Positions 41,959 to 62,200 are shown, counted from the stretch's first letter. The stretch is 64,000 bases of DNA from Desulfatiglandales bacterium (GCA_963662465.1 OY759599.1:1632001-1696000), one strand, 5' to 3'. A program made the numbers and translations. Notes: a model not told the origin generated them from the sequence alone.

Positions 41959-42645
41959 TTATTTGGCCCGAATGATCCCGGATCGTATGACAGTCTTGTC
42001 TTTGGCGATGAAGGTCCCCTTTATCTCGGTCACGCCACCTTTGTTGTCGTTAAAGTCGGCATCATAGCCAAACTCGATATACAGGGTTTTTCCTGCATCT
42101 ACGTTTGTATCGGCGGAAAGATTTCCCGCCACTTTTATGAGAGTGTCGCTCTCCACGGAACTTACGGCCTCACTGAGGGTTGAATAACAGGGATTATTGT
42201 CCCCGCACCCGTCAGCACTCACATAGGCGATTTCCTGATCCCTGTATGTTGCCGTTACGGTTATGAGGTTTTCCGGCATGGTCACGGTGGTGGCTGCCCT
42301 CGTTACATCAGCCACACGAGCCGTATCCCCGGTCCACACCGCAAAGACCTTTCCAGCGGCAGGGGCATTGGCGGAAATGTTCACCACCGTTCCCGCTTTA
42401 TATTCCCCGCCCCCTGTTCCGTTGTTTACGGTCAGAGTGTACGTGGTGACTGCTCCCTGCACCGTCCTTTGGAGCAGGTTGCCGTTGTTGTCGTAGGTAT
42501 AGGCGATGCTTCTGCCGCTGCCGTAGTCGGCGGCGGTGAGGCGGCCGGTGGTGTCGTAGGTGTAGGTGATACTGCCGGCGTGGGCCAGAGGGGCCACGAG
42601 GCAGAGCAGCAGTGTCCAAAAAAGCGATATGGCATGGTGTTTCAT
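41959..42645 (-). CDS. Small exported YD-hairpin protein with InlB-B-like repeat and the shared C-terminal domain
   Basis: Signal peptide ending AHA; ITYTYDTTGRL..YTYDNNGNL; LTVNNGTG..WTG..TMP..VTATY; ends AYVSADGCGDNNPCY...SGIIRAK. Confidence 0.85.
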   Translation of the reverse strand: MKHHAISLFWTLLLCLVAPLAHAGSITYTYDTTGRLTAADYGSGRSIAYTYDNNGNLLQRTVQGAVTTYTLTVNNGTGGGEYKAGTVVNISANAPAAGKVFAVWTGDTARVADVTRAATTVTMPENLITVTATYRDQEIAYVSADGCGDNNPCYSTLSEAVSSVESDTLIKVAGNLSADTNVDAGKTLYIEFGYDADFNDNKGGVTEIKGTFIAKDKTVIRSGIIRAK

Positions 42646-42812
42646 CCTGTTCGTTCCTTTCTCATCTGACGTTTTGCTCTGGCGTTGGATTCGGGCGCGT
42701 GTTTGTGGGCTCATTGTTCGCTTCCCTGTCTAAGTTTGGGGGCGATGACGTGCTTACGGCCGTCGGTGTCTTCCCAGCCATGGAAGAGTAGTTTGACCTC
42801 GGCCGGACCGCT

Positions 42813-45800
42813 TTACTGTTCATCCAGGAAGCGGTTGGCTTCCTGCCAGAACAGGGCCCAGGCCGCCGGCTTTTCGCCGCTGCTGATGTTCGCTCTAGCG
42901 GCGTCGAGCGCTCGAGACTGGGGTTGATTAAATGAAGAAGTCTGAATAACATTGGGGGTATCCGCAGCAAAAGAAACAGGCTTTACGGTCTGACTTTCAG
43001 GATTGTTGCAGAACTCATTTCTGATGTTGGCATCAGGTTTTTCTACTGCTTTGCCACCCTTTGGCTTTTCTAATTTTGCATTCCACCCAGCTTTAGGAAT
43101 ATCAGGTCGTTTACCGGCCTTTTTTAATTCAAGTTGCTTTTTGTGGATCTTATTCAAAAACTTAATGGCTCTTTCCCTGTCATTCCATTTGAATCCATCA
43201 AAGTTCTTTGCTTCAATCAAACCTCGTTGGATTATTGCCAAGATTTTCAACCTTTCTTCAAATGAAAGTCGATCCCACGCATTCAATAAATGTTCTTCGT
43301 GATCCTGGAATTCAAAATTCATGTATAGCATCATATTAAACGCAATCAGCGATAGCGTATCACTAGAGTCACCTCCATCATAAGCAAAGCGACCAGTTAT
43401 ATCTATTAATGTTAGCGGATTATTCAGGGCATATTGATATGGGTTGAGCGCCATGGGAGAATCCAGCAATGGCCATAGTGGTTCCCTGGACATAAATCTT
43501 CCTAAATTCGCATGGTAGTATCGTGCCCTCATCTGATACAGACCGTTGCTTCCCTCCTGCCGCACCTGCAAGGTACCCACAAAGGTGAAGGGTTGATCGC
43601 TGGTTCCTTCATGGGCCAGAAGTTTTCCGTAGGGGCTGTAAGCGTATGTGTCGGTAATGTCGCCGGCGGGGTTGGTGAGAAAGAGCGTATTGCCGATATG
43701 ATCGTAGTAGTAGAAAGCGACGCCATTGTCGTTGGCCGCTTCAATCAGATAAATGAGCTTTCCACCCGGAGTCAGGACGTAGAAGCGTTTCCAGGAACTT
43801 GCGGTCTCGTTGTATTCGGCCACCAGCGGCTTATTGCCCATTGCATAATTATAATAGTAATGAACAGTCGTAACATCCTGTTGCCGGGTGACCAGGTTAT
43901 TCAGGCCGTTGTAAGTCAGATTGGCATAGGCGGTGGCGGTCAGCCGGGTGGCACCGTCCCAGGTATAGGTCTGGCCGGGGGAGGCGGTCTGTCGGCCCTG
44001 ATTGTCATATGCATATCCAGCGGTCGTGACCTGGGATGCCGCATCAAATGTGAGGCTGTCCGTGCCTGACGTCAGGTACTCCGCCGGGTCCAGGGGCAGA
44101 TTGTATTCCAGCCGGGTTATCTCGCCAGCCGCGTTGTGAGTGTACTGCAAGTCGGCCAGAGCGCCGTGCTGAAGGCGGGTCAGACGGGAAGCGGCGTCCC
44201 AGGTGAAAGTGGTATTGATCCCGTTTGGGCGGGTTACTCCAGTAAGGCGGCCGTCGTTGTCGTAAGTGAAGTCGATGGTCGTTCCGGTCAGGCTGTCTGT
44301 GACGCGGGTAAGCAGGTCGCGGGCATCATAGGTGTAGGTCACGGCAAACAGATCATTGGCATAGGTGACTGTCTTGAGCCTGCCCCCGTCATCGTATGTC
44401 GCGCCGAAAGTGGTTCCGGGATTGGTGGTGGCCGTGACCTGGCCGGTTTCGTTGTAAGTGAAGGCGATGTCTTCCGCACTGAGGAGCCGGTTCTGGTTGT
44501 CATAGGTGAAATTCAGGTCCGGACCGGCGGAATACAGGCTTCGTAAGAGGTTGCCCGCATCATCATAGGTCCGGGTCTGGGTGGGACCACCCGGATAGGT
44601 AACCTGATTGAGCCTCCCCCGTGTGTCGTAGTCATACTCCCACAGCTTGCTCAGGGGGTCGGTCAGGCTCGCCAGCCGACCCATGTTGGTGTAGCTGAAA
44701 TTCCAGACACTTCCCTTGAGGTCTGTGATCCGATCCATCACGCCCAGACCGTTGCGTCGGTAGGTGGCGGCCCCGACCAGAGGGAGGGTCACTCCGGTCA
44801 GTCGGCCCGCGTTGTCGTACGAAAACGAGGTCTCCCGGGTGAGCGCGTCAGTTATTTTGGTCACGCGGGACATCTCATTCCGCGTGAAGGCGGTTTCCTG
44901 CTCCAGGGGATTTTTGATCTTACTGATGTGGCCCAGGGCGTCTCGGGTGATGGTGGTAGTCCGACCCAGGGGCGTGCTTTCGGAGGTGGGCAGACCCTCG
45001 TTGTCAAAGCCCGTGGTCCATTCATGCCCGCCGCCGTCCGTGACCTTATCCATCCATCCTCGGGAGTTGTATCCATACTGGATGGTGTTGCCGTTGGGAT
45101 CGGTGACCGACTGCTGCCGGTTCATATTGTCGTAGGCGTACTGACTTTTCTTGCCCCGGGCATTGGTGACTTCATCCACCCGGTCCATGAAATCATGTCT
45201 GAACAGGGTCTGCTTGGTGTCTGGATCGGTAATGGCGTTCAGGTTGCCGTTGGCGTCGTAGGCGTAATCATATTTTTTTCCGCGCTCATCAGTTATGGAT
45301 GTGACCTGGTTGTTGAGATCATAAGCGATCAGCACGGTCGCCCCCCCGGGCCGGGTGATCCGGGTCAGGCGCTTGTACGCATCATAGATGTAGGTGGTTA
45401 CGCCGGTGTCGGAATCCGTGGACGAGGCCAGGGTAGCGTCGTCGACATCGTAAGTATAGGTGGTCACGCCGCCTTCGGGATTGGTGGCTGTGAGGACCTG
45501 GCCGCGGTGATTGCAGGTGTAATTCCAGGTCTTGCCGGTCCGATCCGTATGGGCGGTCATATTCCCTTTGGCATCATAGGTAAACGTCTCCGATGTTTCG
45601 TCCGGATAGTCGATTTTCGTCAGATTGTAGAAGGTGAAATCTACAGTGTTGGCTGGGGTGTCGGGGTCGGCAACGGTCTGGGTCTGGGTCGTGTAGGTAA
45701 AGGTCAGGATCTTGCCGTCCGCGTTGGTAATGGCAGCCAGCTTGCCGGTGGGTTCATGGTAGGTGACCTGGGTGGCGCCGCCAGTGCGGTCGGTCATGGC

Positions 45801-47030
45801 CGTGACCTGGTTGCGGTCGTTTTTGGTCAGGACAAGCGGGTTTCCCTCGGCGTCGGTGAATTGGCTGGGCGGCACGTGGGCGTCGTTGTGGGCGTAGGCA
45901 CCGGTGCTGCTATCCGGATACGTGGCCCGGGTCACGTAGGGGTCCTCGTTATAGCTGAAAGTGGTCTCGTTGCCGTCGGCATCCTTCTGGCTGACCACCT
46001 TGATGCCGTAAAGGGGGTCGCCTTCTGCGTTCTTGTATCCCACATAGTCCCAGACATTTTGAAAATGGAAATAGGTCCCGCCTTTCGGGTTCTCCACTTT
46101 GGCCAGATTGTCGTAGTGGGTGCCGGAACTGGCGACCACGCTCCAGCGAAAGGTATGGGTGTTGCCCAGGGCATCGGTGATGGCGCGCAGGGCGGGCTGG
46201 TTGTTCATGTCTGCGGCGACTGTGTCATAAGCAAAGGTCACGGTGCGCGGATTGGCCGCGTCGGTGCGGTCGGAAATTTGGTATAAATAGCTTTGGCTGC
46301 TGAACGTGTCGTATGCAAACCGCAGCGTGCGGCCCAGGCCGTCGGTGATTTCCGCGATCCGTCCCCCATCGTAGGTGTAACTTAATTTATTGCCGTTGCG
46401 GTCCATGACATAGACAAGCTTTCCTTCCTCCCCGTAACCCGCTGCATAGTCATACACCAGGAGCCGGTCCCGCGACGGGTCCAGGATCCAGAAGCGGTTG
46501 ACTGGATTCCCGCTGGTGGCCGCGGAATAACGGATCGGCAAGGCATTTTCCCGGTAGCCTGCCGTATCCACTTCATTGAGCGCCCAGGTATCGCCGGTTT
46601 TGAGAAAGGATGCCTTTTCCCCGCCCGGGAGGATGACGTCATACCCGGATGTATCCCAGTTGACCGAGGCGGACAGGGGCGGCAGCCAGAAATAATTGGC
46701 ACCTCCATGGGTGGGGAAATAGTTTCGGGTCTCGCTCCACCAGTTGAAAATGGCCCGGTTGTATTTCAGGGCGCAGGACAGCCCCATGGGGCCGCCCAGG
46801 TTGAACAGGGGCAAGGCGTAATCAATGGACCCGCTGCCCGTGACTATGGGATCGCCACTCTTGAAATCATTTTCACCGATCAGGGTGTTGATGCTGCTGT
46901 AGCCGTTTTCGAAGTGGATTAGGGTAGCAAAAAGGGGATAGGGCCAGGCCAGGATGACCAGGGCGATTAACCCGGCCGCTCGCTGGGCGGCCCGACAAAA
47001 AAAGCTTTTTCTTTCTAATGGGTGTTTCAT
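42813..47030 (-). CDS. Sec-signal Rhs/YD-repeat protein with variable C-terminal domain
   Basis: Signal peptide; GDPI motif; many YD repeats; core YYYDHIGN..YSPYG..RARYY..GRF..NPYQYALNNPLTLIDITG; about 190-aa C-terminal region. Confidence 0.93.
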   Translation of the reverse strand: MKHPLERKSFFCRAAQRAAGLIALVILAWPYPLFATLIHFENGYSSINTLIGENDFKSGDPIVTGSGSIDYALPLFNLGGPMGLSCALKYNRAIFNWWSETRNYFPTHGGANYFWLPPLSASVNWDTSGYDVILPGGEKASFLKTGDTWALNEVDTAGYRENALPIRYSAATSGNPVNRFWILDPSRDRLLVYDYAAGYGEEGKLVYVMDRNGNKLSYTYDGGRIAEITDGLGRTLRFAYDTFSSQSYLYQISDRTDAANPRTVTFAYDTVAADMNNQPALRAITDALGNTHTFRWSVVASSGTHYDNLAKVENPKGGTYFHFQNVWDYVGYKNAEGDPLYGIKVVSQKDADGNETTFSYNEDPYVTRATYPDSSTGAYAHNDAHVPPSQFTDAEGNPLVLTKNDRNQVTAMTDRTGGATQVTYHEPTGKLAAITNADGKILTFTYTTQTQTVADPDTPANTVDFTFYNLTKIDYPDETSETFTYDAKGNMTAHTDRTGKTWNYTCNHRGQVLTATNPEGGVTTYTYDVDDATLASSTDSDTGVTTYIYDAYKRLTRITRPGGATVLIAYDLNNQVTSITDERGKKYDYAYDANGNLNAITDPDTKQTLFRHDFMDRVDEVTNARGKKSQYAYDNMNRQQSVTDPNGNTIQYGYNSRGWMDKVTDGGGHEWTTGFDNEGLPTSESTPLGRTTTITRDALGHISKIKNPLEQETAFTRNEMSRVTKITDALTRETSFSYDNAGRLTGVTLPLVGAATYRRNGLGVMDRITDLKGSVWNFSYTNMGRLASLTDPLSKLWEYDYDTRGRLNQVTYPGGPTQTRTYDDAGNLLRSLYSAGPDLNFTYDNQNRLLSAEDIAFTYNETGQVTATTNPGTTFGATYDDGGRLKTVTYANDLFAVTYTYDARDLLTRVTDSLTGTTIDFTYDNDGRLTGVTRPNGINTTFTWDAASRLTRLQHGALADLQYTHNAAGEITRLEYNLPLDPAEYLTSGTDSLTFDAASQVTTAGYAYDNQGRQTASPGQTYTWDGATRLTATAYANLTYNGLNNLVTRQQDVTTVHYYYNYAMGNKPLVAEYNETASSWKRFYVLTPGGKLIYLIEAANDNGVAFYYYDHIGNTLFLTNPAGDITDTYAYSPYGKLLAHEGTSDQPFTFVGTLQVRQEGSNGLYQMRARYYHANLGRFMSREPLWPLLDSPMALNPYQYALNNPLTLIDITGRFAYDGGDSSDTLSLIAFNMMLYMNFEFQDHEEHLLNAWDRLSFEERLKILAIIQRGLIEAKNFDGFKWNDRERAIKFLNKIHKKQLELKKAGKRPDIPKAGWNAKLEKPKGGKAVEKPDANIRNEFCNNPESQTVKPVSFAADTPNVIQTSSFNQPQSRALDAARANISSGEKPAAWALFWQEANRFLDEQ

Positions 47031-47039
47031 GTTTCCTCC

Positions 47040-47438
47040 TTATAAAATGGAACTCTTCAAGGGTCGGCTCTTTTCAGAAATCAGCCTTGCAATTGTGAGT
47101 GGGAGTTCATCGAACAAAGCATCCTGAGCCATGCAGACGTCGGCTCGGAAATCTGGACGAAGGGCGTATATTTCCGGTCCGTAGGGGATGTAAACGATAA
47201 TTTTCATGTCAGGAGTTTGGGCTTTAATCTTCCGGCAGGCCTCCAGTCCGTCCAGACCCGGGAGCTGGACCTTCATGAGTACGAGGTCCGGGGCCAGGTC
47301 CTCCGCAAAGGCCACGGCGTCCGGACCGTTTGCGGCCATGCCCACGACAACGGCCATGCAGTTTTCTTCCAGGTGGGCCTTCAGGGCACGCCGGAAAAAG
47401 GGGTAATCATCGGCGATGAGGGTGCGGATACGGTGCAT
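47040..47438 (-). CDS. Receiver-only NarL-type protein with non-canonical phospho-site
   Basis: LIADD, PDLVLMKVQLPGLDG (Lys at the Asp site); 9 bp upstream of the rhs start. Confidence 0.8.
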   Translation of the reverse strand: MHRIRTLIADDYPFFRRALKAHLEENCMAVVVGMAANGPDAVAFAEDLAPDLVLMKVQLPGLDGLEACRKIKAQTPDMKIIVYIPYGPEIYALRPDFRADVCMAQDALFDELPLTIARLISEKSRPLKSSIL

Positions 47439-47495
47439 GTTGGATAAGGCCTTCCAAATTCAAGTTGATGCGTCAGAACTCAAATGCCGGGTTGG

Positions 47496-47540
47496 ATCAT
47501 TTCAATCCCGGGCAGGAATGTCAATCAGGTGAATCCTGTA
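47496..47540 (-). promoter_or_regulatory. Sigma70 promoter candidate with adjacent palindromic operator
   Basis: TTGACA (47524-47519), 17-bp spacer, AATGAT; TACAGGATTCACCTGA abuts the -35; conserved at 58939-58983. Confidence 0.6.
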
Positions 47541-47614
47541 TTTTTGAAAAAAAATAGGCTTGAAAACTTGAATCGCCCGAATGAAACGAATCGGTCGCGG
47601 CATGGTGGAAGGGT

Positions 47615-48095
47615 TTATATCAGGCCATGGGCCGCGGCATAGCGCACCAGATCGGCGGTGGTGTGGATGTTGAGCTTTTGCATGATATGGGTACGGTGGG
47701 TGTCTACGGTCTTGATGCTGATGTGCAGGATTTTGGCAATTTTCTTGTTACTGCGGCCCAATGAAATACGTTTCAGAACTTCCAGTTCCCGCGGCGTCAA
47801 TCGGGATTTGTTTGCGTTGCCTGTTGCGCCACCCGCGGACAACCGGGATGCAACCGCCGGGCTCACATAGGTTTCCCCTTTTCCCACGGTCTTTAGGGCG
47901 GTCATCAATTCGTCAAAGGTGTTTTCCTTGAGGAGAAAACCGTTCGCCCCCGCTTCCATGGCCTGTTGCAACAGGTCCGGGCCCGTGAGCATGGTCAACA
48001 GAAGAATCTTGACGGGCAGACCCTGTTCTTGAAGGATTTGCGCGATCTCCATGCCGGAAAAGAGCATGATCGTCGGCAAGAACAATACGCATCAT
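47615..48095 (-). pseudogene. NarL/LuxR-family response regulator with internal deletion and frameshift
   Basis: MMRIVLADDHALF jumps out of frame to SGMEIAQ...; HTH LTPRELEVL..GRSNK.IA..HRTHIMQKL is intact. Confidence 0.8.
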
Positions 48096-48779
48096 GGCAT
48101 GGGGACCTCCACCTCGATGGCACATCCCTTTCCCTGGTCGCCCTGGATACGAATTTAACCCGCCGGGCTTCCGCATGCTTTTCCACATTGTGAAGGGCCT
48201 CCTGAACGATCCGGTGTAAATTTTCCCGATGGTCACCATCAGAAAGGCCATGCCCAGATCGCCGGGGGAAACGGGCCAAGCTATGCCAGTGACCCCCGAA
48301 GGAGTCCATTCGACCATCATGCCCGCCACAAGTCCGAGTATTCCCACGAGTACGGGTCCGGAGCCTTGCCTGTGACGAAGGAAGGCACGCACGGTCAGAA
48401 ACAGGGCTGTTCCCCCTGTACAGGCAGCCACCACAAAAAAGACCGTCAGCAGACAGGCGTAGGTTTTCAGCCCCGGAAGTAAAAAAAATGCAATGCTCAG
48501 TATGACTGAAGCAGCCATAAGCACGGTGATCCACAGCCCCCGGGAATGCGGATAAAGGTTCACGACAAATAACAGCCCGGCAGCGGGCAGAAGACAGGTC
48601 ATAACGAAGATCGCGCGCTGCACCGGGGGCGATTTGAGTCCCGCCGCGTTATACAGATACAGACTTTCCAGAACAAAAAGGGCCATATAGAGCCCCAGGA
48701 AAAGGGTAAAGGAGAGATAGTCCGGGCTTCTGACCTTCTGAGTAAACGCCATGTTATCCAAGGCCGGCTTCCAAGTCAA
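48092..48779 (-). pseudogene. Degraded multi-TM NarX-type histidine kinase
   Basis: TM segments, then out-of-frame fragments LHRIVQEALHNVEKHA and GKGCAIEVEVP* overlapping the regulator ATG. Confidence 0.7.
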
Positions 48780-49339
48780 TGCACAACTATTGCGATTCCG
48801 GCAATTGCAGTTTTGAGCTGAAAGAGAAAGATATTTTTCACACGCTGGTTGCCGCCAAGCAAACGGATTTGAACAAACAGATTATTACCCGCATCGTGCG
48901 GGATCAAAAAAGCAAATTCCTTGCGACCGATTTTATCCTATAACGAAACCCCTTAAGTGCGCGGATGCATAAGCCCGGACTCGTCTGCCAGGGGACCCAA
49001 AGGCGGGATTAAGATCCGACGACGCTCCCCCAAAGGCCACCCTCAATATATGGAGGTTCCACCAAATATTGAGGAGAAACCAACCCTTCTATGCGCTGCG
49101 CTACTCTCTCCTGTTAACCTAAAGACCTGTTATTAATCCATTAATCATAAATATTGCCGATTCGCGGTTGTTGGCAGGATAGTTGCATTTCCAATTCTTG
49201 AGCAGAATATTTGCAATAACTATTCGCATGAGTTTGATCATCATACGAACGTCGGATCTTACATTTGAGCGTATCGGTGATCTGGTCAACTACAATTTAC
49301 CCGCGTTGCTCGGCGTTGTTAAAACCGACGATGCACTTA

Positions 49340-50753
49340 GGGAATTCCCAAGAAATAAACTACCCAACTCCAGATTCAATAAGTACATCCCATTTGGGCA
49401 GTGTGTCGGAACGTTTAATTCTGTTTTCGTAAGGTTTCATTTCTTTTTTTGTAAGCCGGATTCCCTTCTTATATGCCTTTTCCACCAAAGTGACAATGGG
49501 CTTTATCCCTTTCCATGTCATCGTAGATGCCCAATTGACTGCTTTTGATATTGAATCCAATATTTCTCCGTTCCAATGTCCCTCCAATATTCCCCAACAT
49601 CTTTCAACCGGATTGTACTTACTATGATAGGGAGGATAATAAACCAGGCGGATTCGCAAACCTGTTTTGTCACTGAATTCGGTCATTCTGCGAATGAATT
49701 GAGTCCGACCGCTTGCTGAATTCGGACCATTGTCAAGATTGATAACCAACTCGTTTATATGAAGATAGGTAATTCTGTTTTTTTCCCACCACATCTCTAA
49801 ACAGTCAACGATGAAATCACTTGTTTCAAAAGATGTGCCGAAAAAAATAGAAAGCATTCCGCTCAAAACGTCAAGAATACCGTACGGAACCAATTTCATT
49901 TCGGGATTCATATCATGGTCTTCAGCTTTCTTCGCTTCCCGATCCCGTGACTTTCCGTTTCTTGAGAACTCGCCTATATTCACTTTTGCCTTGGCATCAA
50001 TAGAAATCCGATGAGAGTTGGGATTCTCATCAGAGTCACGGTTTGCCTTCCATACATTTTCAAATATTTCATCGACCTGTTTTATCTTTTTCGCAGGTTT
50101 GGATTTCAGGACTCGTTTCAGGTTGTATCCCATGCGGTTCAACATGTTGATCAGAGTGTTGTTAGAGGGAAGATCCTCACCGTCGTATCCTTTCTCATCA
50201 ATCAGTGCCTTTTTGAGAGCTTTTCCTGTAATTCTTGTATATGTGATAGAGCTTTTCATGGCAGGGTCCGCCTGAGTTTGAGGTTCTGCAAAGGATATTA
50301 TGTCTTCTTTAATACCGGGAATCGTGTCTTCTGTTTTCTTTTTTCCCCGTCCCTCAAAATTATCCATGCATCTGATCCCGCTTTCGGCTTCTTTAAGGCC
50401 TTTTGTTACACACTCTCTCCCCCATCCCATCTCCCGTTCGGCTTTGTATGCACTCCCGTTGAAATATTTCCTGGTAATGTCGGCCTGATATGCTCTTCTT
50501 TTGTAACCAGTCAGTCGTCTGCATGCATCTTTTATCAGATTTTTTGTTTCTCCGTTCATTCTTTTTACCCGTTACTTTTTTCAATGTATGAATTTCATGT
50601 CTTTCATACATTATGCTCATACCACCTCCTTCAATTTTTGTCCCCTCATTTTTTTAAATTGCGTTTCAATGCAAATAAAGATTCTGATGCATTTATCTTT
50701 TCAGGATAACATTATGTTTGAAATAATGCGTAGGTTATTTCTTGGGAATTCCC
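49340..50753 (-). mobile_element. ISAzo13-family insertion sequence
   Basis: Perfect terminal IR gggaattcccaagaaataa (49340-49358 / 50735-50753), flanked by TA on both sides. Confidence 0.9.
49360..50559 (-). CDS. ISAzo13-family DDE transposase
   Basis: ISIDAK, DHD, NLDNGP, YYPPYHSKYNPVERCW; AT-rich. Confidence 0.92.
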   Translation of the reverse strand: MNGETKNLIKDACRRLTGYKRRAYQADITRKYFNGSAYKAEREMGWGRECVTKGLKEAESGIRCMDNFEGRGKKKTEDTIPGIKEDIISFAEPQTQADPAMKSSITYTRITGKALKKALIDEKGYDGEDLPSNNTLINMLNRMGYNLKRVLKSKPAKKIKQVDEIFENVWKANRDSDENPNSHRISIDAKAKVNIGEFSRNGKSRDREAKKAEDHDMNPEMKLVPYGILDVLSGMLSIFFGTSFETSDFIVDCLEMWWEKNRITYLHINELVINLDNGPNSASGRTQFIRRMTEFSDKTGLRIRLVYYPPYHSKYNPVERCWGILEGHWNGEILDSISKAVNWASTMTWKGIKPIVTLVEKAYKKGIRLTKKEMKPYENRIKRSDTLPKWDVLIESGVG

Positions 50754-51059
50754 TAAGTAATACCCCCTTCCCAATAAAACGATAGAGCCTTCTCTCTTAG
50801 GAGAGGTGAGTAGGATCATAGTAAATTGTACTCGCAAAAAGCTTGCCAACAAGCGAAGAAAGCTCAGGAATGTCTAATATGTCTGTAATAACAGTGGATT
50901 AAATTAACAGGATGGCGCAGCGGAAAAGTCTGGAATGATCGCTTTCCCTCAGCATACTGCAGTTCCACCAAACATTGAGGGCTAACCAATGATATCAACT
51001 TTCTTTATGCTTGCTATCATTTCCTACAATAAGTTGTTGCCCTGATATCTGTTTCACGT

Positions 51060-53930
51060 CTATTTGGCCCGAATGATCCCAGATCGTATGACAGTCTTGT
51101 CTTTGGCTGTGAATGTCCCCTTTATCTCAGTCACGCCGCCTTGGTTGTTGTTAAAGTCGGCATCATAGCCAAACTCGATATACAGGGTTTTTCCTGCATC
51201 TACGGTTGTATCGGCGGAAAGATTTCCTGCCACTTTTATCAAAGTGTCGCTCTTCACGGAACTTACGGCCTCACTGAGGGTTGAATAACAGGGATTATTG
51301 TCCCCGCACCCGTCAGCACTCACATATGCCATATCCTGATCCCTGTAGGTCGCTGTCACTATCACATTTGCCGCCGGCATGGTAATGGTTGTGGGGGTGC
51401 TGTTCATATCCGCCACGTGGGCCGTGTCTCCGGTCCACTGCTCAAAGACCTTGCCTGCCGCCGGATTATGAGCCGAAATATTCACTACTGTTCCTGCTTC
51501 ATACTGGCCGCTCCCCGTGCCATTCACAACGGTCAGAGCAAACTGTTTCTCCGGATCGTCCTTGTATGTGGCTGTCACCGTCACATCGGCCGCGGGCATG
51601 GTGACTGTGGTATTCGCGCTGTTGAAATCCGCGACAAAACCGGCGCCCCCGGTCCATTGGTCAAAGATCCGGCCCGCGGACGGGGCGTTGGCCGATATGT
51701 TTACCTCTGCTCCCGCTTCATACGGGCCGCTTCCCGTGCCATTCACCACATTCAGGGTGAAAAGTTCGACTACCGGGGCGCATTGTGAAAACTCGGAAGT
51801 GCTGTTATACGTCTGACCGCTGTATACGGCGGGTTGGGTGGCAGTGGCTGTGATGAAATGTCCCGGTGGAACTGCGACCGAAAACACCACATCAAAAGTG
51901 CCCTGCCCATCCAATTCCGTCTGGATCTCGGTGGCGCCCAGAAACGTTTCGCCTTCCCCGTACCCGGAACCATCGCAGGAAGGGTTGGCAAAAAATTCCA
52001 ACCGAAAACGACGGTCCGTCCCGAGGGAGCTGTTGAGTGATCCTTTGATTTTAGTGATGCTGCCGTCGCTCCCTGCTAAAGTCACGGTTGGAAAATTCTG
52101 AAGATCGTTTCCACCATTATCCGAATCATCCAGGTCATTTAAGGTAACGCCTCGTAATCCTCCCAGAATTTCAGGGATGGGCAACAGGTCTATTCCCAAT
52201 TGAGCATTTGCAAAAATGGCATTGCCCTTGATATCCCAGCCGTCGCCGCTGTCAACGAGTACACCTGCTTTGCCGTTGAAGGCGATGGTGTTTCCCTCTA
52301 TCAAACTGCCGGTGCCGTCTGCCGCATAGACACCGTCTGCGGAGTTGCCCAGGTCTCCTGAGCCGCCTTGGTCCGTCCCAATACGGTTGTTCTGGATCAC
52401 GTTGCCTTCCGTGCCTGCCCCTTCGATTCGCACCCCACAGCCGTCATTGCCCGATATGATGTTATCCTGGATCGTATTGTAGGCCACATCGCCGTCAAGA
52501 AGCACGCCCGAGCCGTTACCCAATTTCTTTGTCCCAGCAGGGTCCGTTCCGATGAAGTTGTTCTTGATTTGGTTGTTCTTGGGGCTGGGATCGGGGTTCC
52601 CTAAATCAGGCCCCCCACTGCCTGCACCCTCTATCCAAACGCCGGTCTCAGAATTGCCCGAAATCACGTTGGCCTCGACAATATTGTCCGAGTTGTTGAA
52701 AATGCGCACCCCAGCCTCTCCGTTGGGGAGCTTCTGGGTTCCGGCCTTGTTCGTACCAATGTAGTTGCTTTCAACACGATTTTTGCCGCTGACAGGTTCG
52801 CCTTGAGGCTCTCCGGAGATCTGGACGCCGTGCTTGCCATTGCCGGATATGATATTGTTCTTGATGCTGTTCTCGGATAGAAAAGAAAAAATGGTTACGC
52901 CGTTTTCGCCGTTAGGGACGGCCAAGGCGCCTGAGACGTCCGTGCCGATGGTGTTGTCTTCCACCCGGTTGGATGCCGACCCGTCGCCAATAATCACGCC
53001 ATGACCATTACCCGAGATGACGTTGTTGCGGATGACATTCTGAGCGGAATTTTCGATCCAGATGCCCACATCGTTGCCCATTGGGCCGTCACCCGCTGCA
53101 TTCGTGCCGACGTAACTGCCTTCAACCGTATTGCCGTCCCCCGTTTTCAGGATGATTCCCATCTCGGGAAAGCCGTTGATAACGAAACCTTTCACCGTGC
53201 TGGCGCCGGCGGTAATCACCAGACCATCGCCGTCGGCGCCGATGCCGGCCCCATTCAACTCGACCTTACCGCCTCCGGGCTGGGTGGCGCCGTCAATGAA
53301 CACGGGGTCGGTCACCTCCGGCAGGGGAGTGGCGGGCTGGATCTTGGGGACGCCCTCACCAGGAATGTCGAAGGTGATGGTGTCCTGCCCCGCCCTGGCG
53401 TTGGCTTCCTGGATCGCGGCCCGAAGGGTGCATTCGTTACCGCCATCCACGATGTTGCCCGTAAAACACATGTTGTCATTCGGATCGGCATCATCGTCGT
53501 CGCCCGTGGAATTGACCTGAAGTCCAAATGTTAAATAGTAGGTATGAGTCGTATAATAGCAGCAGCAGGCCTGCTCGACATTGTTCTGCCCGCACTCAAG
53601 ATAAAGCGAACCGTCAGGAAAATCCCCGGAAAGTGTAAGGACAGAATAGTCCACATAACAGGTGTTGAGATCGGTCTCTGTCACCCGGATTCCGTCTATC
53701 GTGTCATTCACTGAAAAAGACGTAGTTTTGGTTACGTGTCCTTCGCCTGGCACAGAATGAACATTGATCCAATTTCCGTCCTTCAGTTTCTGAAAAATAA
53801 CGGTGCTGCGGCAGTCATTACTCCAACCAACCCTGTAGGTGGCGTCAACGCTTCCAACCCACTTGGATGCATTTCCAATTGCCGGAACACACAGGAGAAC
53901 CAACCCCAGTAAAAAGGCCACTTGTCTCAT
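51060..53930 (-). CDS. Exported CSLREA-type parallel beta-helix protein with two InlB-B-like repeats and the shared C-terminal domain
   Basis: Signal peptide; VNSTGD..CTLRAAIQEAN; repeated N.IGT/NVISGN; QNFP..EFF..GEG..ITATAT..TSEFS; shared CTD. Confidence 0.88.
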   Translation of the reverse strand: MRQVAFLLGLVLLCVPAIGNASKWVGSVDATYRVGWSNDCRSTVIFQKLKDGNWINVHSVPGEGHVTKTTSFSVNDTIDGIRVTETDLNTCYVDYSVLTLSGDFPDGSLYLECGQNNVEQACCCYYTTHTYYLTFGLQVNSTGDDDDADPNDNMCFTGNIVDGGNECTLRAAIQEANARAGQDTITFDIPGEGVPKIQPATPLPEVTDPVFIDGATQPGGGKVELNGAGIGADGDGLVITAGASTVKGFVINGFPEMGIILKTGDGNTVEGSYVGTNAAGDGPMGNDVGIWIENSAQNVIRNNVISGNGHGVIIGDGSASNRVEDNTIGTDVSGALAVPNGENGVTIFSFLSENSIKNNIISGNGKHGVQISGEPQGEPVSGKNRVESNYIGTNKAGTQKLPNGEAGVRIFNNSDNIVEANVISGNSETGVWIEGAGSGGPDLGNPDPSPKNNQIKNNFIGTDPAGTKKLGNGSGVLLDGDVAYNTIQDNIISGNDGCGVRIEGAGTEGNVIQNNRIGTDQGGSGDLGNSADGVYAADGTGSLIEGNTIAFNGKAGVLVDSGDGWDIKGNAIFANAQLGIDLLPIPEILGGLRGVTLNDLDDSDNGGNDLQNFPTVTLAGSDGSITKIKGSLNSSLGTDRRFRLEFFANPSCDGSGYGEGETFLGATEIQTELDGQGTFDVVFSVAVPPGHFITATATQPAVYSGQTYNSTSEFSQCAPVVELFTLNVVNGTGSGPYEAGAEVNISANAPSAGRIFDQWTGGAGFVADFNSANTTVTMPAADVTVTATYKDDPEKQFALTVVNGTGSGQYEAGTVVNISAHNPAAGKVFEQWTGDTAHVADMNSTPTTITMPAANVIVTATYRDQDMAYVSADGCGDNNPCYSTLSEAVSSVKSDTLIKVAGNLSADTTVDAGKTLYIEFGYDADFNNNQGGVTEIKGTFTAKDKTVIRSGIIRAK

Positions 53931-54186
53931 TGGCAACCTCCTTATCGAAATGAATCACGGGCCGACTGTCCATAAAGACATACTTGATCTTCCGGCCGCT
54001 CTGATCAGAAGAACACAGGGTGAAAAAATCGCCGAATTTTTCGCTTTTGATGGTGGTTTCCATGGGTTAGATGTTGACAAAAATCATTTCATTTTGCAAG
54101 CAAAAATTCGAAAATTTTTTCTCAAGAATTTCAGAACGTTAAAAACCCAAAGACCCGAGACGCACACGTTTACTTGAGAAACCGCC

Positions 54187-54376
54187 ATGCAGTTATTTCA
54201 GATATTCTTCCTATGGAAAAGAGGCGCCTACACCAACGGGGAACTTGGAGACATCTTCGGTATTACCTATACGGTCGTCAGCCATATCGTGAAGCAGGTG
54301 AAAGAGAGGCTGAAAACAGATCAAAATTTTCAGGCGAAGTGCAAAACACTCAATTCACAAATCAAGATGATGACCC
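54187..54376 (+). pseudogene. C-terminal remnant of a RAYT/IS200-like transposase (HTH tail)
   Basis: YTNGELGDIFGITYTVVSH..LNSQIKM followed by tgacccc. Confidence 0.55.
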
Positions 54377-54439
54377 CATTTCCCGTTCGTTCTGGTCGGT
54401 CCATAATGCACTTCCGCGCGCCTGAACCTGAAAGCCCCC

Positions 54440-54931
54440 CTATTTCCCCCGCAGGGTCCCCGATCGAATAATGGTTTTGTCTTTCGCAACGAACTGGCCG
54501 TTGATTTCGGTGACACCGATGTTGGATTCAAAGGCGGAATCATACCCCCACTCAAAGTAGAGGGTTTTTCCGGTATCCACGGTGGCGCCCTCAAAACTTT
54601 CCGCAGCCACCTTGATGAGGGTATTGTCCACGGCATCGCTGATCGCTTCAGCCAGGGTGTGGTAGCACGGCGCATTCCCCCCGCAGTTCCCCGTACTCAC
54701 ATATGCGGTTGATGCGAGCGCCTGCGTCACGTCCCTTACAATCAGGTTTCCGCCCGCATCATAGCTGTATGCAATACTTTTGTCACCGCCGTAATCGGCT
54801 TTGGCCAGGCGGCCGGCATTGTCATAGGTATAGGTGATGTTCACAGCCTGGGCCGGAAGCGCCGCCAGCAGGCAGATGCCCATAAGCAGGCATGTGATGA
54901 TACATTTTGTTTTCATAATGATCGTCTCCAT
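54440..54931 (-). CDS. Small exported YD-hairpin protein with the shared C-terminal domain
   Basis: Signal peptide ending AQA; ITYTYDNAGRL..YSYDAGGNL; AYVSTGNCGGNAPCY...SGTLRGK. Confidence 0.85.
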   Translation of the reverse strand: METIIMKTKCIITCLLMGICLLAALPAQAVNITYTYDNAGRLAKADYGGDKSIAYSYDAGGNLIVRDVTQALASTAYVSTGNCGGNAPCYHTLAEAISDAVDNTLIKVAAESFEGATVDTGKTLYFEWGYDSAFESNIGVTEINGQFVAKDKTIIRSGTLRGK

Positions 54932-54956
54932 TTGATGGTCAATCGTTCGTTTTCGT

Positions 54957-57247
54957 TCATCTACCCTGCAATGCAGGCACCAGCCAATAGGTAACCGGTT
55001 TCCCGCAAATGGGTCGGAGCACCTGCTCGAGCATCTCTATGCGTTTCTTCCGCTTTTCATCCTCATCCACCTCACGGTGCACAGCCGCTATTTGGGCATC
55101 CATTTCCATGTCCTTGTGAATGTCTTGCAAAATATCGGCGTGAAAGCCGCTGTAAGTCGGAGGGAATCCGTTTTGAGCCAGTCCAGCTAATATTTGCCTG
55201 CGAATTTTCTTCTTTTCTTCTTTCCACTTATTGTACTCTTCTTCTCGCTTTCTTTTCGCTTCTTCTTGCTTGATGAGCTTGTTACGGGCTCTTTTCACCA
55301 GTTCTCTGAGAGTTCTGGCCTCGGTCACCAGATCCTCGGGGTGCACTGAAGACGTAATTCCAATAAAGGCCTTCGGATTCGCTATGATTTCCGCTGCAAT
55401 TTCATCCATCTCGACCAGTCTCTCTGCGTCTGCCCACTCTTGAAAACCGGCGTCACTACCGTAACCATCTATCGGTTCTATGGGCGACCTCATGCCTTGG
55501 GGCAAACATTCCTTCCAGACATCCATACCACGACCAAAATACCCTTCGCTGATGACAACGGAAACATCCAGCCCATCGGCATCCAGGAGATTGACCGGAT
55601 CGGAGTAGGCGTAGTTGTACACATTGAGGCCTGCCGGGTTGGTCAAATCCGGCCACTCCGGCTCAGGCGAAATGAAATGACCGCTCTCGGGGTGCTAGAA
55701 GCGGGCGCCATGGCGATAGAGGCTGTCCACACCCAAAACCGCGTGGCACCCGAGTTGTCCCAGGAATTGAAATGGCGGCGTTTCGGTCCCTCCGGGTTGA
55801 CCATTCGGCCGTATGGCGTGTAGCCGAAGCGCCCGGTAACGGCACCGTCTCCGTCGGTGGTAGCCACAGTGGAGCCCCGCTGATCGAAATGGTAATACAC
55901 CGCTTCGCTGGTTCCGGCAGTGGGGATGCGAATAGAATAGATAAGCCCCCATCCCGGGGCCACGGCCTGAATCCACTGTTGTCGGCCCTCGGTGATTTGC
56001 AGGGGCAATTGTGTGCTGATGGCGGTGCAGTAGGCATAGGAGACGGTTTCTCCGGACAGGGTGGTCTCTACAAGACGGTTCAGGCCGTTATAGCGGTTTA
56101 CTGCATCGTTGATGCCCGTGAGGTGCGAAAGCCCGTTCCATGTACAGGTCAGGGAAGGGGCCTTGGTCATTCGTCCTCGAAGGTCCATAGCCGTAATCCG
56201 CCCCGGCCACCTGACTCATGGCGTTATACGGGAGAGTCTGCCGGTTTTCCGTAAGGGTATCAACCACATCCACGGGCAAATCGCCCGTTACGGAGGTGAT
56301 CCGTCCGATCGCGTCGAAAGTATAATTTACGTCAGTGAAGTCACCGTCCTGAATGGAGGTGCGTTTGCCGGACCCCTCATTGTCCCAGACGAAAGTGCTC
56401 TTTACGTCGTTCTTGCGGGTGATTTGGGTGATTCGGCCGGCGGCGTCGTAGCTGAAGCCGGCGGATCCCAGGCCCAGGGAATCGGTCATTGAAGCCAGAT
56501 AACCTGTGTCGGGGTCATAGGTGTAGATGAAGGTGATGTTATCGTTGGCGTCCGTCTGTTTTACGACCACGGGAATGAACATGCTGCCGCCGGTGCCGTG
56601 AACCTGCACACTGTCGTACTCCGATGTGTAGGGAATGGTTCCCCGGGGAGTGGTCATGGCGGTGAGGCGGTTGCTGCCGTCATAGGCAAATGTGGCAGCG
56701 TTGCCTTCGGGGTTGACCATGGATGTGAGATATCCGCCGGTGTAGGAAAATGTCCAGGACAGCGCCGGCGTGGTGTCCGTCGTAATGGCGGTCACCACCT
56801 ATTTATCGCTCACTTTCTGCATGGTAAAATCGATCTTTTGGCCGGAGGAACTCTCAATAGAAACCAGTCCGGGAAAGGACTTGCCGGCAAATGCGTTGTA
56901 GGTATAAGTCAGCGAGTTGCCGGCGCGATCCATTTTCTTGCGACACAGGTACAAAAAGTCGTTGTAGTTCTCAAAATAGAAAACCGTATTGTCCGCGGGA
57001 TTTTTCAAAAAAAAGTGATCCCCCGCAGCCTTGAGCTCATAGGGCCAGGCAGATAGAACAGGGGAAGGGTCATCAACTCCTCTCCGGTGGCGGCGGACAC
57101 CGGGTCTCCCACTTTGGGGGTCTTGTCCGGCTGGTGGTTGAGACCGTCAGCGGTGTTGCACATCCCGCTTGAGGCGAAACCCAGAATCAACATCAGGATC
57201 AACCAGCGGGTGAACAGGGCAGGGTTTGCAAATTTGCGAATTTTCAT
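54957..57247 (-). pseudogene. Degraded Sec-signal Rhs gene (several frameshifts and deletions)
   Basis: Collinear fragments: signal plus GDPVSAATGE; YD repeats; YYHFDQRGS..YTPYG; NVYNYAYSDPVNLLDADG plus a distinct C-terminal region. Confidence 0.85.
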
Positions 57248-57350
57248 GGTTAGCCTCATACAACCTCCATTGATTACAAGAACATATAAACAATCATAAC
57301 CTTTTGGATCTGACAATTTTTAGGCCTACCACAAAAAAACAACTGAGTGC

Positions 57351-57391: not shown

Positions 57392-58168
57392 TTAGTCAAA
57401 GGGATTGGCGGGAATAAGTCCGTGAGCAATGGCCAGGGCCACGGCATGGGTGGTGTTTACGGTGTCGAGCTTGGCGCTCGAATTCTTGAAGTGAAAGCGC
57501 ACCGTACTCTCGCTTATGGAAAGAATCATGGCAATTTCAGCGGCAGTTTTGCCCTGGGCCGCCCAGAGCAGGCATTCACATTCCCGAAGGGATAACTCTA
57601 TTCGAATTGTCTTGTGCACCAGCGCTTTCCAGCGTTCATGAAAAAATACGGCTCCGGCGTACGCGGTATTCGTCACCAAGGCCAATTGCATGTGCAGTTT
57701 TATCGGATTGTGATACCGCGACATCAGGATCAGGCCGCAGCGACGATCCGGCGTGTCCAAAGCGCAGATGAGAGAATAAGCCACGGAAGGGTCATCCAGA
57801 ACCTCCTCCGGTCGTCCCGGAGGGGGCTTGCCGGTGACGGATTTAAAGGCTTCATAGGGCGTGAAAGGCCCCTGATCGCCCGTAACCAACCGAATCAATA
57901 TAGGGTTTCCTCCAAAAATGCGGCTTTTGATCAGGCCGGCCAGGGCCTTTTGATCCGTGCAATGCAGCAACACGCTTTCAAAAAACCTGCCTACATCCGG
58001 TCGCTTGTGGGGTATGCTGGGAATGGAGGTATAGATGAAGCCCTTGAAATGCAAGTTTTCCAAGAAATCCGAAAATTCCCGGCAAAGCCCGGCCATATCA
58101 GAGGCCTTCACAGCCCGCTGAATAAGGTCATTTAAAATGCGTTCTTTTCTTATTTTGATGCGTATCAT
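57392..58168 (-). CDS. LuxR-family regulator with degenerate autoinducer-binding domain (LuxR solo)
   Basis: LSLRECECLLWAAQGKTAAEIA.IL.ISE.TVRFH; N-domain has NP where AHL receptors have DP. Confidence 0.85.
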   Translation of the reverse strand: MIRIKIRKERILNDLIQRAVKASDMAGLCREFSDFLENLHFKGFIYTSIPSIPHKRPDVGRFFESVLLHCTDQKALAGLIKSRIFGGNPILIRLVTGDQGPFTPYEAFKSVTGKPPPGRPEEVLDDPSVAYSLICALDTPDRRCGLILMSRYHNPIKLHMQLALVTNTAYAGAVFFHERWKALVHKTIRIELSLRECECLLWAAQGKTAAEIAMILSISESTVRFHFKNSSAKLDTVNTTHAVALAIAHGLIPANPFD

Positions 58169-58356
58169 GAGAGAACCTTGAATAGGATCGTTGTTTGTCA
58201 GCTGTATTGAACATTGTAGGTTGACGACTGGCTCGATCCATTTTTATTTCATCCCTGCTTCCAGTGAAAAGGTCCCGCATTTTTGCCAAAAGCCTGGGAA
58301 ATGTCAAGAGGACAACGGGGGAAGAGCATGCTAAACAGTCCACTTGGGAGGAAGAG

Positions 58357-58642
58357 ATGGCGAGACCCTGGAGAATTCAGTATGCGGGCGCCTATTACCA
58401 CGTGCTTGCGCGAGGAAACGAAGGGCGCAATATCTTCCGTGGCGATGAAGACCGGAAGATGTTTTTGGAAACACCGGGCGAGACCTGCGATCGCTTTGAT
58501 GTTGAAATATATGCATTTGTGCTCATGAGCAACCACTGTCATCTTTTGCTTCAAACCAGGTCTGCCAATCTGTCCAGAACCATACAATGGTTCGGGGTCA
58601 CCTACAAAGGTGACACGCCCCACCGTGAGATTCCCCAACAGA
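58357..58642 (+). pseudogene. N-terminal remnant of a RAYT (Y1/HUH) transposase
   Basis: MARPWRIQYAGAYYHVLARGN..IF..D..YAFVLMSNHCHLL, then truncated. Confidence 0.8.
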
Positions 58643-58660
58643 GGGGGGTCGTGGGAAAAT

Positions 58661-58984
58661 TGGGCTTTAATCTTCCCGCAGGCCTCCACTCCGTCCATAC
58701 CCGGGAGCTGGACCTTTATAAGTACGAGGTCCGGGGCCAGGTCCTCCGCAAAGGCCACGGCGTCCGGACCGTTTGCGGCCATGCCCACGACAACGGCCAT
58801 TCAGTTCTCTTCCAGGTGGGCCTTCAGGACACGCCGAAAAAGGGGGGAATCATCAGCGATGAGGGTGCGGATACGGTGCATGTTGGATAAGGCCTTCCAA
58901 ATTGAAGTTGATGCGTCAGGACTCAATTGCCGAGCTGGATCATTTCAATCCCGGGCAGGAATGTCAATCGGGTGAATCCTGTAT
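58661..58984 (-). pseudogene. Second copy of the promoter plus receiver-only gene (internal stop, 3' truncated)
   Basis: Near-identical to 47218-47541; TGC to TGA change before MAVVV. Confidence 0.85.
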
Positions 58985-59264: not shown

Positions 59265-62200
59265 TCACCTGGCGCGAATCGTCCCGGACTGAATCACGGT
59301 CCGGTCCTTCGCCGTAAACGCTCCCTCAATCTCCGTAACCCCGCCCGTATTGCTGGTGAATTCGGCATCATAGCCAAACTCGATAGACAGGGTCCCGGCA
59401 GGGTCCACCACCGTATTTCCGGCTATATTGCCCGCCACCTTGATGAGGGCGTTGTCCTCTGCCTTGCTCACGGCCTCGCCGAGGGTGGCATAACAGGGGG
59501 CCTTTCCATTGCATGTGCCGTCCGCGCTCACATACACGATCTGCTGGTCCTTGTACGTGGCGGTGACCGTCACATTGGCCTCCGGCATGGTTACGGTGGT
59601 GCCGGCACTGTACACGTCCGCCACATGGGGCGTGTCTCCGGTCCATTGATCAAAGAAACGGCCAGCGGCAGGATCATCAGCGGCGATGTTCACGACCTCG
59701 CCCGCTTCATATGCCCCGCTGCCGGTACCGTTGTTTACGTTCAGGGTGTAATTCATGTCGATATTCGCCCGGCCCGGTGTGGGCTTTTCGGCGTCATATC
59801 CGCAGTTGGGATCCCAGTCAAAGGGGAGATCCATATCGAAGCTGTCCTTGTCCCGACCCAGGCTGTTACCCGGATCCGGTTTCGCAAGAGTCTCATCCGG
59901 GGTCCCAAACCGTACATCATCCCGCTGATTTCCCTCGGCATCCAGCAATGTCGCCGAAGCCCCGCTGCCTCCCAGCAAATTGGCGCCCTCGGGCCAGTCA
60001 ATATCCTTGCCGACCGTGTCCTGGTATCCTTGAAGGTGAATGACAAGAAAGCCCTTTGACTCAAGCACACCATCCCAGTCCGGGCCGCTCATGGGCAGCG
60101 TGAATGTCGATTCGCCATCGTTGAAGACGACTTGCCATCCCCCCAAAGATTGATCGAAGGCGCCCGGGTTTGCAATTTCCACCCATTCCCGGGGAACGGC
60201 GTCCTCCGTTGGTGGACAGATTTCGTTAAGCACGGGCCGGCGGTCGGGTTTTTCGGGAGATATGAACGAGTAAACAAGAGGGTACTGGTCGCCACCGGTG
60301 GTGATGTTGCCATTATCGGTATGGGGCGTCAGGGTGTCTCCCAGTCCATCACCGTTCGTATCCTCCCCGATATAGGAATTCCACTCGTTGCCGCCGATTT
60401 TCGGCCCGCCGATGATATTTGTTTCATCCACCGGCGGTTGGAGGTTCCACGTATTCAAGGCCGTGGCAATGGCATTTTTGTCATTTTGAAGGCTGTTGTC
60501 ATAGATGCGGTTGCCTGTTGACGACCCCAGGTCAAGCCCCGATTCTTCGTTCCGCATTATTTTGTTTTGGGTAATGGTCATGTTGGTGCAACCAGAGAGC
60601 CGCATGCCGTCAAGCCGGTTGTCAAGAAATGCATTTTTTTCAATCGTACCCGCGTCAAGAGCCTCGCAGACGAGGCCGCCGAGGAAATTGGAACGGAAGG
60701 TATTCCTTTCAATCGTGCCCGGCGCTGTCGCGCGCTCGCGGTAAAGGCCCATGCCGTCGTTATCCAGAAACGCGTTGTAGGTATAGCGGATATTTGAGGC
60801 GGATTGTTCTACGACGCCATGATTACCACCGTTGTCGAATTGGCTGTAGATAACGACATGGTCTGATCCCTTGTTGATCCGAAGGCCCGTTTCCCCGCTC
60901 TCCTGAAAACGGGTACGGTTCACCTCGACATTCTGAACATCATCCAGTAAAGCGCCCAGGGGGCATCGGATGATATAACATCTGTTCATGCGCCCGGACG
61001 CGACCTCTCCTCGAACCTGTACCCCGATCTCCCCTGCGTCTTCAAGACGAACATGTTCCAGCCCGAAGTTGTCAGTGCCCTGGTTGTCTATCAGGATGGG
61101 GGAATTGGTGTAAACGCCGCCCTCGATCACGTGGCCTTCTCCCTCCGGACGAAGAACGACACCGGCGGTTCCATTGCCGTCCGCGTTGCAGTTAACCAGA
61201 TCGCAATTCTGATGAACTTCATGCCAGTCTTCATAAGCAGAGCCTATATGGAAGCCGGCTTTCTGGTTGTTTGCGGCGTCACAGGTAATAAAACGTAAAT
61301 TGTCCGCCCCTCCACAATGATATCCGTAAATGTTTTCAGAAGATACGTTGCTTTCCAGGGCGATGTTGCTTGCCGACCAGGAGTATAGGCCGCTGCCGTC
61401 GCCGTCCACCGGTGCGGGTCCATCGCATTTCCGCATGGTATTGTTCTCAATTGTGGAATCGTTTACCCGGTCAAGACGGATACCGATGCGAGCCGTGTCG
61501 ATCGCGTTGTCGTCGATTTTCGCTCCGGTCAGACCAGCGCAATCGATAGCAACGCCGGTCAACCCATTAAATTGATTGTTAATGATTTGAGGATCGGCAC
61601 AGTTCCTGACCTGGAGGGCATTTTCACACTCGGAAAATTGATTGTTCCGGATATCTATCTGGCCCGATTTTCCAGCGACGACCACGATATTCCCTTCCCC
61701 CGTGATGCGCTCGAAAATATTGCCTTCGATTTTCAACGGACTCGTGGTGCTCAACTGATTAAAAACGCCCATGCTGCTCCAGTCGTGGACATGATTGTTC
61801 AGCAGATGGACGTGGCGCAGACGGTTGGAACTGCCCAGAACATAGCCCTCTCCATTGCGAAACTCGCACTCCTTTATCTCAAGAAGCGGTGTTTCCGTGG
61901 CGTCTTCATATTCGGTGGTCTTTATATGAAGCTGCGAGGTGCCTTCGAAAACGCAATTGTCAAAGGTCGCCGGGCGGTTGAAGGAATCCAGCCAGGTGCT
62001 GTATTCCCCGCAGTTCTTGAACCGGCTGTTGGTGATTTGAACTGCCTCAATAGAGCTGTCTTCGGTGGGGTCTCCAATACGCAAGCCCGCTTCACAGTCT
62101 TCAAGAACCAGCATGTTAATCTCAAAAAAAGACGAACAGGCATTTATGCTGACGGCGGCCCTACCAATGGCATTTCGAATGGTATTGTTATAAAAGTTAA

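Follow-up and report, generated by a model that had tools for sequence, protein, structure and literature searches.

A shortened Rhs shell and a small exported partner carrying a matching YD unit: a putative two-chain Rhs cage

Described Rhs shells and trans-acting partners

In chaperone–usher pili, an incomplete β-sheet is completed by strands from another chain (donor-strand complementation); the fold is unrelated to that treated here, and the pilus is a polymer with one strand per subunit. Among YD/Rhs proteins, the B and C components of Tc/ABC toxins (TcdB2–TccC3, YenB–YenC) form one spiral from two polypeptides, and natural fusions of them are known (passages of bioRxiv 2024.02.26.582050). 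The system reported here would likewise build its shell from two chains. In Tc B–C, however, two large halves, divided end to end, make up the shell and dock on TcA, whereas here a ~35-residue internal piece has been moved to a small, separately exported and tag-bearing chain. No end-to-end split of the Tc type was found: Rhs1, the intact Rhs protein of the locus, holds the N-terminal spiral and the core, and only an internal unit is missing. Its model matched 4igl, used for the Tc B–C comparison, with Z 22.4 and rmsd 2.8 over 463 aligned residues.

T6SS Rhs effectors (RhsA 7Q97, RhsP 8H8A, Tse15 8UY4, and 8QJA) have the shell fold, the core motif and a variable C-terminal cargo in common with Rhs1, which differs from them in bearing a signal peptide and in the absence of PAAR, VgrG, EagR and a T6SS. 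Bacterial teneurin-like proteins (TLPs) and other signal-peptide Rhs are also exported by a signal peptide, directed to the surface and provided with caged cargo; in these, the anchor is N-terminal and in cis and the downstream gene encodes immunity (sections of PMC13018210), whereas here the downstream gene encodes a shell piece plus a tag. In the MafA–MafB system of Neisseria, as here, the product of a conserved adjacent gene has been proposed as the trans anchor of a polymorphic toxin (excerpts of PMC3482391), but MafA, a lipoprotein, bears no relation to its client, while the putative anchor here is part of the fold of the client itself. The short Rhs described in parts of bioRxiv 2024.02.26.582050 carry toxin domains and differ from the partners reported below.

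No description of a Rhs partner of this kind was found in the literature searched, mostly open-access main texts; supplements, such as Supplementary Data 6 of PMC13018210, could hold such genes. Partnered Rhs of the short-junction type, defined below, constitute a real, widespread and apparently undescribed variant of Rhs systems. They bear on the open question of how Rhs that are not linked to a T6SS become surface-located and free their cargo, and they add to the picture a widespread, unremarked component with a residue-level site.

The two Rhs genes and their small neighbours

The window, a 64,000-nucleotide stretch of a Desulfatiglandales bacterium (GCA_963662465.1, OY759599.1:1632001–1696000), belongs to a genome (G000) that consists of a single 8.16-Mb contig and is 100% complete; its closest named relatives in a GTDB scan were Desulfobacterota MAGs. 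Positions 52110–56575 were matched without difference by a contig from a public run, which is possibly that of the source sample. Features are collected in Table 1, with signal peptides judged by eye and from hydropathy.

As originally predicted from the sequence, rhs1 combines a Sec-type signal, visible as a hydrophobic N-terminus, with the absence of the C-terminal domain (CTD) shared by other proteins of the window. It comprises 12 RHS_repeat stretches (PF05593, 265.6 bits) and TIGR03696 at residues 1131–1213 (58.9 bits), and ends in a 192-aa extension beyond the core. A DxxG motif is present in the Rhs copies of the genome and suggests autocleavage. The second gene, rhs2, was rightly taken to be degraded, with its reading frame broken across several frames and a length of ~2.3 kb compared with ~4.2 kb in its paralog, although its start lies at ~57259 instead of 57247. 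Its ortholog is intact in a genome of the same genus (G420).

A small exported gene directly follows each rhs gene, with 167 bp (small1) and 25 bp (small2) between rhs stop and partner start. In both products, a signal-like N-terminus precedes a single YD unit, which exceeds the Pfam and TIGR cut-offs, and the CTD; this architecture had been foreseen except for the Flg_new_2 domain that small1 adds between YD unit and CTD. The YD unit, counted at first as about two strands, consists of two hairpins and hence four strands. The CTD of partner 1 is 93% identical to that of the 958-aa neighbour. Atlas matches of the partner N-terminus were all under 0.9, and a scan for promoters and terminators gave a chance-level result.

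Table 1. Position of Rhs genes, partners and CTD-bearing proteins in the window.
Feature	Position	Strand	Description or basis
rhs1	42813..47030	(-)	1405-aa intact signal-peptide Rhs, short-junction type
rhs1 signal-peptide-like N-terminus	46926..47030	(-)	Inspection of sequence
rhs1 Pro-rich junction	44064..44099	(-)	Residues 978–989, ~35-aa YD unit missing; alignments
rhs1 core end	43392..43421	(-)	DxxG autocleavage-type motif; TIGR03696, putative cleavage
rhs1 variable C-terminal cargo	42816..43391	(-)	192 aa, without family match
Partner 1 (small1)	41959..42645	(-)	Signal peptide + YD unit + Flg_new_2 + CTD
Partner 1 YD unit	42463..42570	(-)	Four strands, the piece absent from rhs1
Partner 1 Flg_new_2 spacer	42238..42441	(-)	InlB B-repeat-like; PF18998, 47.4 bits
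Partner 1 CTD	41962..42231	(-)	Putative lineage-specific sorting domain
rhs2 pseudogene	54957..57259	(-)	Several frames, large internal deletion, short-junction type
rhs2 Pro-containing junction	56253..56279	(-)	
Partner 2 (small2)	54440..54931	(-)	Signal peptide + YD unit (54731-54838) + CTD (54443-54709)
Exported beta-helix protein	51060..53936	(-)	958 aa, same CTD at end, ordinary CTD client
Exported beta-helix/LTD protein	59265..63920	(-)	1551 aa, same CTD at end

Response-regulator and LuxR-type genes or fragments are located upstream of both rhs genes (window 47040–48821 and 57392–58985). Parts of these regions are duplicated at 94–98% just past the window end, and several related rhs loci are also preceded by similar regulators. 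An ISAzo13-type transposase (PF07592) at window 49337–50754 has near-identical copies elsewhere in the genome. The rhs1 N-terminus (window 46990–47030) contains an RK-x-FF motif, which reads RR-x-F in two close relatives and is absent from the other paralogs; we take these motifs to be possibly Tat-like, judging by the consensus.

The missing YD unit and its gene neighbourhoods

In alignments, partnered Rhs lack a block of ~35 residues (four strands), located ~235 residues ahead of the end of the core; a Pro-rich linker, hereafter the short junction, stands in its place. The missing block corresponds to a single double YD repeat, to which the YD unit of the partner can be aligned. It appears as a clean indel in the alignment of the C-terminal shell, with short-junction rows devoid of the unit and full rows possessing it. 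Having the unit is the normal state of Rhs: it is retained in 89 of the 93 classifiable proteins among 120 generic Rhs sampled, as well as in all five solved Rhs sequences inspected (8h8a, 8h8b, 9ifo, 9pt5, 8qja). With a profile derived mainly from short-junction rows, 85 of the best 150 matches cover both anchors, 82 of them short and three long. The final junction classifier was bimodal; many of the closest short-junction rows were dropped by it and were counted from the alignments. On a rough tree of 130 Rhs, calculated from the 165 residues after the junction and weak in its deeper branches, the short or full label changes eight times, compared with a mean of 42 upon shuffling; the short-junction state is suggested to have arisen several times. 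Solved Rhs cores, with no partner involved, are reported to vary by four strands immediately beyond this position (parts of bioRxiv 2024.02.26.582050). Structure 8QJA was considered as a solved short-junction shell and discarded, as it aligns through the unit and the remarked four-strand residues lie just downstream.

The module proved to be repeated, as had been proposed: in the host genome, each of the seven small genes for a signal peptide, a YD unit and the CTD comes immediately after a Rhs gene with a signal peptide. This pairing is not due to chance (roughly ~2e-4 per gene), although the seven loci are paralogs and not independent. The one Rhs of this genome that bears its own CTD retains the unit and has no partner. 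This 2564-aa full-unit protein (L005, C1:3465939–3473633) extends ~800 aa past the core, with the CTD at its end, and is the in-cis counterpart of the split arrangement. A further Rhs-like gene, the ninth, is built differently and lacks both a CTD of its own and a partner. At L002 (C1:2803746–2814053), Rhs and partner are duplicated in tandem, with cargo 99% identical and an in-frame stop in the first copy.

Beyond this genome, all seven partners of two same-genus genomes follow short-junction Rhs, and neither Rhs of this type nor partner was seen in three draft genomes of the genus. Twenty of 78 GTDB loci were short-junction by alignment, and 13 of these have a partner (11 in the fetched DNA and two more on extension), including Anaerolineae, the Verrucomicrobia group, Acidobacteria, Rhodoferax, Desulfobacterota records and one archaeal bin (L019 and the G414 C6 locus represent a single record). 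The contig of L015 was assigned to a Thermoplasmata archaeon in binning, but its Rhs and partner resemble those of Anaerolineae, which may reflect misbinning. The remaining seven loci show no visible partner, two of them being truncated. They stem from six genomes, three of which have partners beside other short-junction Rhs (12/12 stretches fetched); no partner was found elsewhere in the other three. Three of eight short-junction Rhs from metagenomes have a partner, and the other five all have a truncated flank. None of the 75 full-unit Rhs of the GTDB and metagenome scans (61 with at least 1 kb downstream, 33 with both sides) had a partner beside it; one such flag was rejected as a 16-residue match in a Rhs-like piece.

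The converse survey started from the partner and covered 401 genomes of the phylum, in which kin do not count as independent cases, with all 35 matches outside the host genome in frames of <600 aa being fetched: 28 were partner-like, one was atypical and six were Rhs pieces. The adjacency to rhs genes that had been anticipated was found for most, with a Rhs gene or fragment near 21 of the 28, but not for all. Of the seven without Rhs, six are no more than ~600 bp away from the end of their contig; the seventh, L162, is truly orphaned, with no Rhs within 7 kb. Of 16 readable junctions beside partners, 15 are short; the exception, L169, has a Rhs that retains the unit and lacks ~30 residues just after it. 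In several phyla, partners were found beside short-junction Rhs, and they may lie upstream, downstream or on the opposite strand while keeping a signal peptide and no more or less than one unit. At L013 and L020, tandem Rhs genes share a single partner, and the partner of L253 exceeds 1000 aa. Many small 'YD repeat' genes, otherwise read as fragments or immunity genes, would be reclassified on this basis.

A Rhs from a Pirellulales MAG (L016) is the only exact fusion found. It carries a 42-column insertion exactly at the junction, which scores 61.3 bits on the partner profile, compared with at most 41.9 for full-type units among the matches listed, and no separate partner was found in this 2.8-Mb MAG. 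The protein looks like a re-fusion because it nests among short-junction Rhs (support 0.95 on the rough tree of 130 Rhs). In the AF2 model of its last 600 core residues (pLDDT 95.7), the insert contributes four consecutive ladder strands. In the model of Rhs1 residues 290–1213 (pLDDT 93.7), the ladder halts at the strand just before the junction. Rhs1 is predicted to be a spiral β-sheet shell, its model displaying the Rhs shell fold with a best Z of 30.4 against 8uy4 (rmsd 2.7, 763 aligned). A bridge-only stretch after the Rhs1 junction was considered as a sign of a hole and set aside, as the model of the fusion shows the same pattern. In a register test, the aligned ranges of the Rhs1 and L016 models were compared on the same 11 solved chains, where a contracted shell would show a shift of ~42 residues. 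The offset was the same within two residues on six chains (8uxt, 8qja, 8qjd, 4igl, 6vhh, 8r50) and differed by 17–43 residues on five with poor rmsd or many insertions (6fb3, 9g41, 7pq5, 7q97, 6h6g), 6h6g deviating by 43 residues in the direction of contraction. The shared register on six of 11 chains leans indirectly towards an unfilled slot, with the caveat that AF2 may echo known shells.

Tags, cargo and the proposed two-chain cage

The CTD spans ~90 aa with a Cys pair and occurs on diverse exported proteins. An iterated HMM detected it in 31 ORFs of the host genome, four of them in the window; 29 carry it C-terminally, most with a signal-like start, and seven are the small YD + CTD proteins. 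A search with one query detected it in 11 of 24 genomes of the same family and in none of 16 from other families of the order. It matched nothing in NCBIfam or Pfam, and its top Atlas matches (0.90) were unnamed clusters. Tripartite CTERM sorting signals combine a motif, a transmembrane helix and a basic cluster (excerpts of bioRxiv 2023.06.07.544157); the CTD has no transmembrane segment and does not follow this PEP-CTERM type layout. Its distribution points to a sorting signal, and the CTD, confined to the family as far as the searched relatives show, is a candidate for a new sorting domain.

Partner tails vary with the host, and neighbouring exported genes often share the same tail. Those at or above curated cut-offs include T9SS type A (two of three such tails), IPTL-CTERM plus choice-of-anchor U, Soli_cterm, YLP-box and Dockerin_1 (four tails); others are Ig-like, PKD, FG-GAP or unnamed. 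In one tag swap, a Rhs pair 90% identical has partners with YD units 74% identical and unrelated tails, the CTD in one and IPTL-CTERM in the other. Across the seven non-independent loci of the host genome, YD-unit similarity follows that of the Rhs junction (rho 0.52) while CTD similarity does not (−0.04), which, with so few loci, is no more than suggestive. Partner tails also draw attention to new sorting domains of particular lineages, for example the unnamed CTD of the 31 ORFs. The tails of L151, L167, L173, L174 and L175 finish in a short Pro-Trp-Leu or similar hydrophobic end without library match, possibly another unnamed sorting motif of the phylum.

The predicted absence of vgrG, PAAR and eagR from the window extends to the whole genome, in which TssC, PAAR, VgrG and DcrB/EagR gave no matches, while the control genomes matched. 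The features of T6SS-delivered Rhs effectors, namely a PAAR/VgrG link, EagR and T6SS genes, are therefore absent. As in polymorphic toxin systems, a variable C-terminal domain is attached to a conserved core. None of 23 cargoes matched a Pfam toxin family at E ≤ 0.05, in libraries that are incomplete. With PADLOC, the rhs2 cargo gave only weak matches (E 0.002–0.008), and the rhs1 cargo and both partners gave none. Cargoes of paralogs within the genome are unrelated, except for one tandem pair. Orthologous cargoes are 56–94% identical in three comparisons, including 56% for rhs1 and the ortholog of a relative, and differ at the rhs2 locus, where the partner is nevertheless 87% identical in the relative, which argues against the partner being an immunity protein. 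Two cargoes (L004 8737–9327; L012 7901–8602) resemble Kelch repeats, not toxins.

The claim that an immunity gene is missing is true at the loci of the host genome, but several related loci carry an immunity-like gene between Rhs and partner. The partner directly follows Rhs with no immunity-like gene between them at seven loci of this genome and seven of the same genus; a 51-aa basic ORF that intervenes at two loci of the former, the tandem L002 copies, may yet be such a gene. Immunity-like small genes lie between Rhs and partner at L167, L169, L183 and L253, so that some members are probably ordinary polymorphic toxins. The missing immunity gene is local, not family-defining, and the cargo of this genus, with no such gene adjacent, is probably harmless to the producer or kept caged.

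The observations are that partner and Rhs are adjacent, that the piece deleted from the Rhs is the one the partner encodes, that a fusion exists and that tags are interchanged. From these we propose that, quite probably, the shell is completed in trans by the partner, which also provides a sorting tag that a cargo-occupied Rhs C-terminus could not carry. Both chains would cross the inner membrane via their own signal peptides. The four strands of the partner would then join the free edge strand (Rhs1 residues ~971–977) and fill the slot, and the filled cage would gain a free outer C-terminus bearing the tag, which would route it through the export or anchoring pathway of the host. In other Rhs, the cargo is cleaved and caged inside the closed spiral (parts of PMC8765631); by analogy, the Rhs would be unable to carry the tag itself because its C-terminus would be cargo that is cut at DxxG and caged. 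Strand complementation with a tag in trans, the core of the original prediction, is strongly backed by these comparisons, which also name the site, while physical binding is what we infer from them. The additional role as a cap fared worse, as the partner looks instead like a lateral element close to where the spiral ends C-terminally. Several observations point against the proposal: AF2 gives a confident fold for the short-junction shell by itself, some short-junction Rhs have no visible partner, one partner (L169) accompanies a full-unit Rhs and another (L162) no Rhs, solved cores vary by four strands close to the site, five of the 11 register comparisons disagree, and the exact fusion is a single case. 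A cage whose tagged wall piece is swappable might also find use in protein encapsulation and display.

More tentatively, and with some doubt on our part, the partner may be a removable latch that completes the cage wall, ties the cage to the C-terminal export or anchoring system of the host (T9SS, exosortase-type CTERM, dockerin, YLP-box or the unnamed CTD) and opens the cage on release. Partner removal as the step of cargo release is speculative. If true, it would provide a general plug-in route for Rhs cargo without T6SS, one that arose several times and extends over different phyla, and the exit of caged Rhs cargo would be explained by the design itself.

It is unlikely that the partner binds Rhs without becoming a lasting wall piece, as a transient folding or export chaperone or as an adaptor on another sheet edge, with the Pro linker closing the slot. 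The shell that folds alone in AF2, the partner beside the full-unit Rhs of L169 and the single partner for tandem Rhs genes (L013, L020) would fit such a role, but the precise match of the partner to the deleted unit and the placement of the L016 fusion at the junction are left unexplained. We likewise regard as improbable a fission relic, i.e. an excised rhs piece captured as an ordinary tagged surface protein and linked by descent, with no shell contact. The ancestry common to the seven paralogs and many homologs, the partnerless short-junction Rhs and the persistence of partner 2 beside the rhs2 pseudogene would suit a relic. Against it, partners in varied positions and strands and with many unrelated tails keep a signal peptide and exactly one unit across phyla, occur in separate short-junction groups of a tree with ~8 changes of state, and have YD units, but not CTDs, that track Rhs across the seven non-independent loci. 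Least credible of all is an immunity protein for the Rhs cargo, an outcome the original prediction had listed against itself: the partner does sit where Rhs and TLP immunity genes lie (sections of PMC13018210 and bioRxiv 2024.02.26.582050), but partners are conserved while cargoes are unrelated, as at the rhs2 locus of the relative, and four loci have a separate small gene between Rhs and partner.

With regard to possible export machinery, the host genome encodes three secretins, and a GspE/PilB-like ATPase was recognised by inspection at window 33590–36106.
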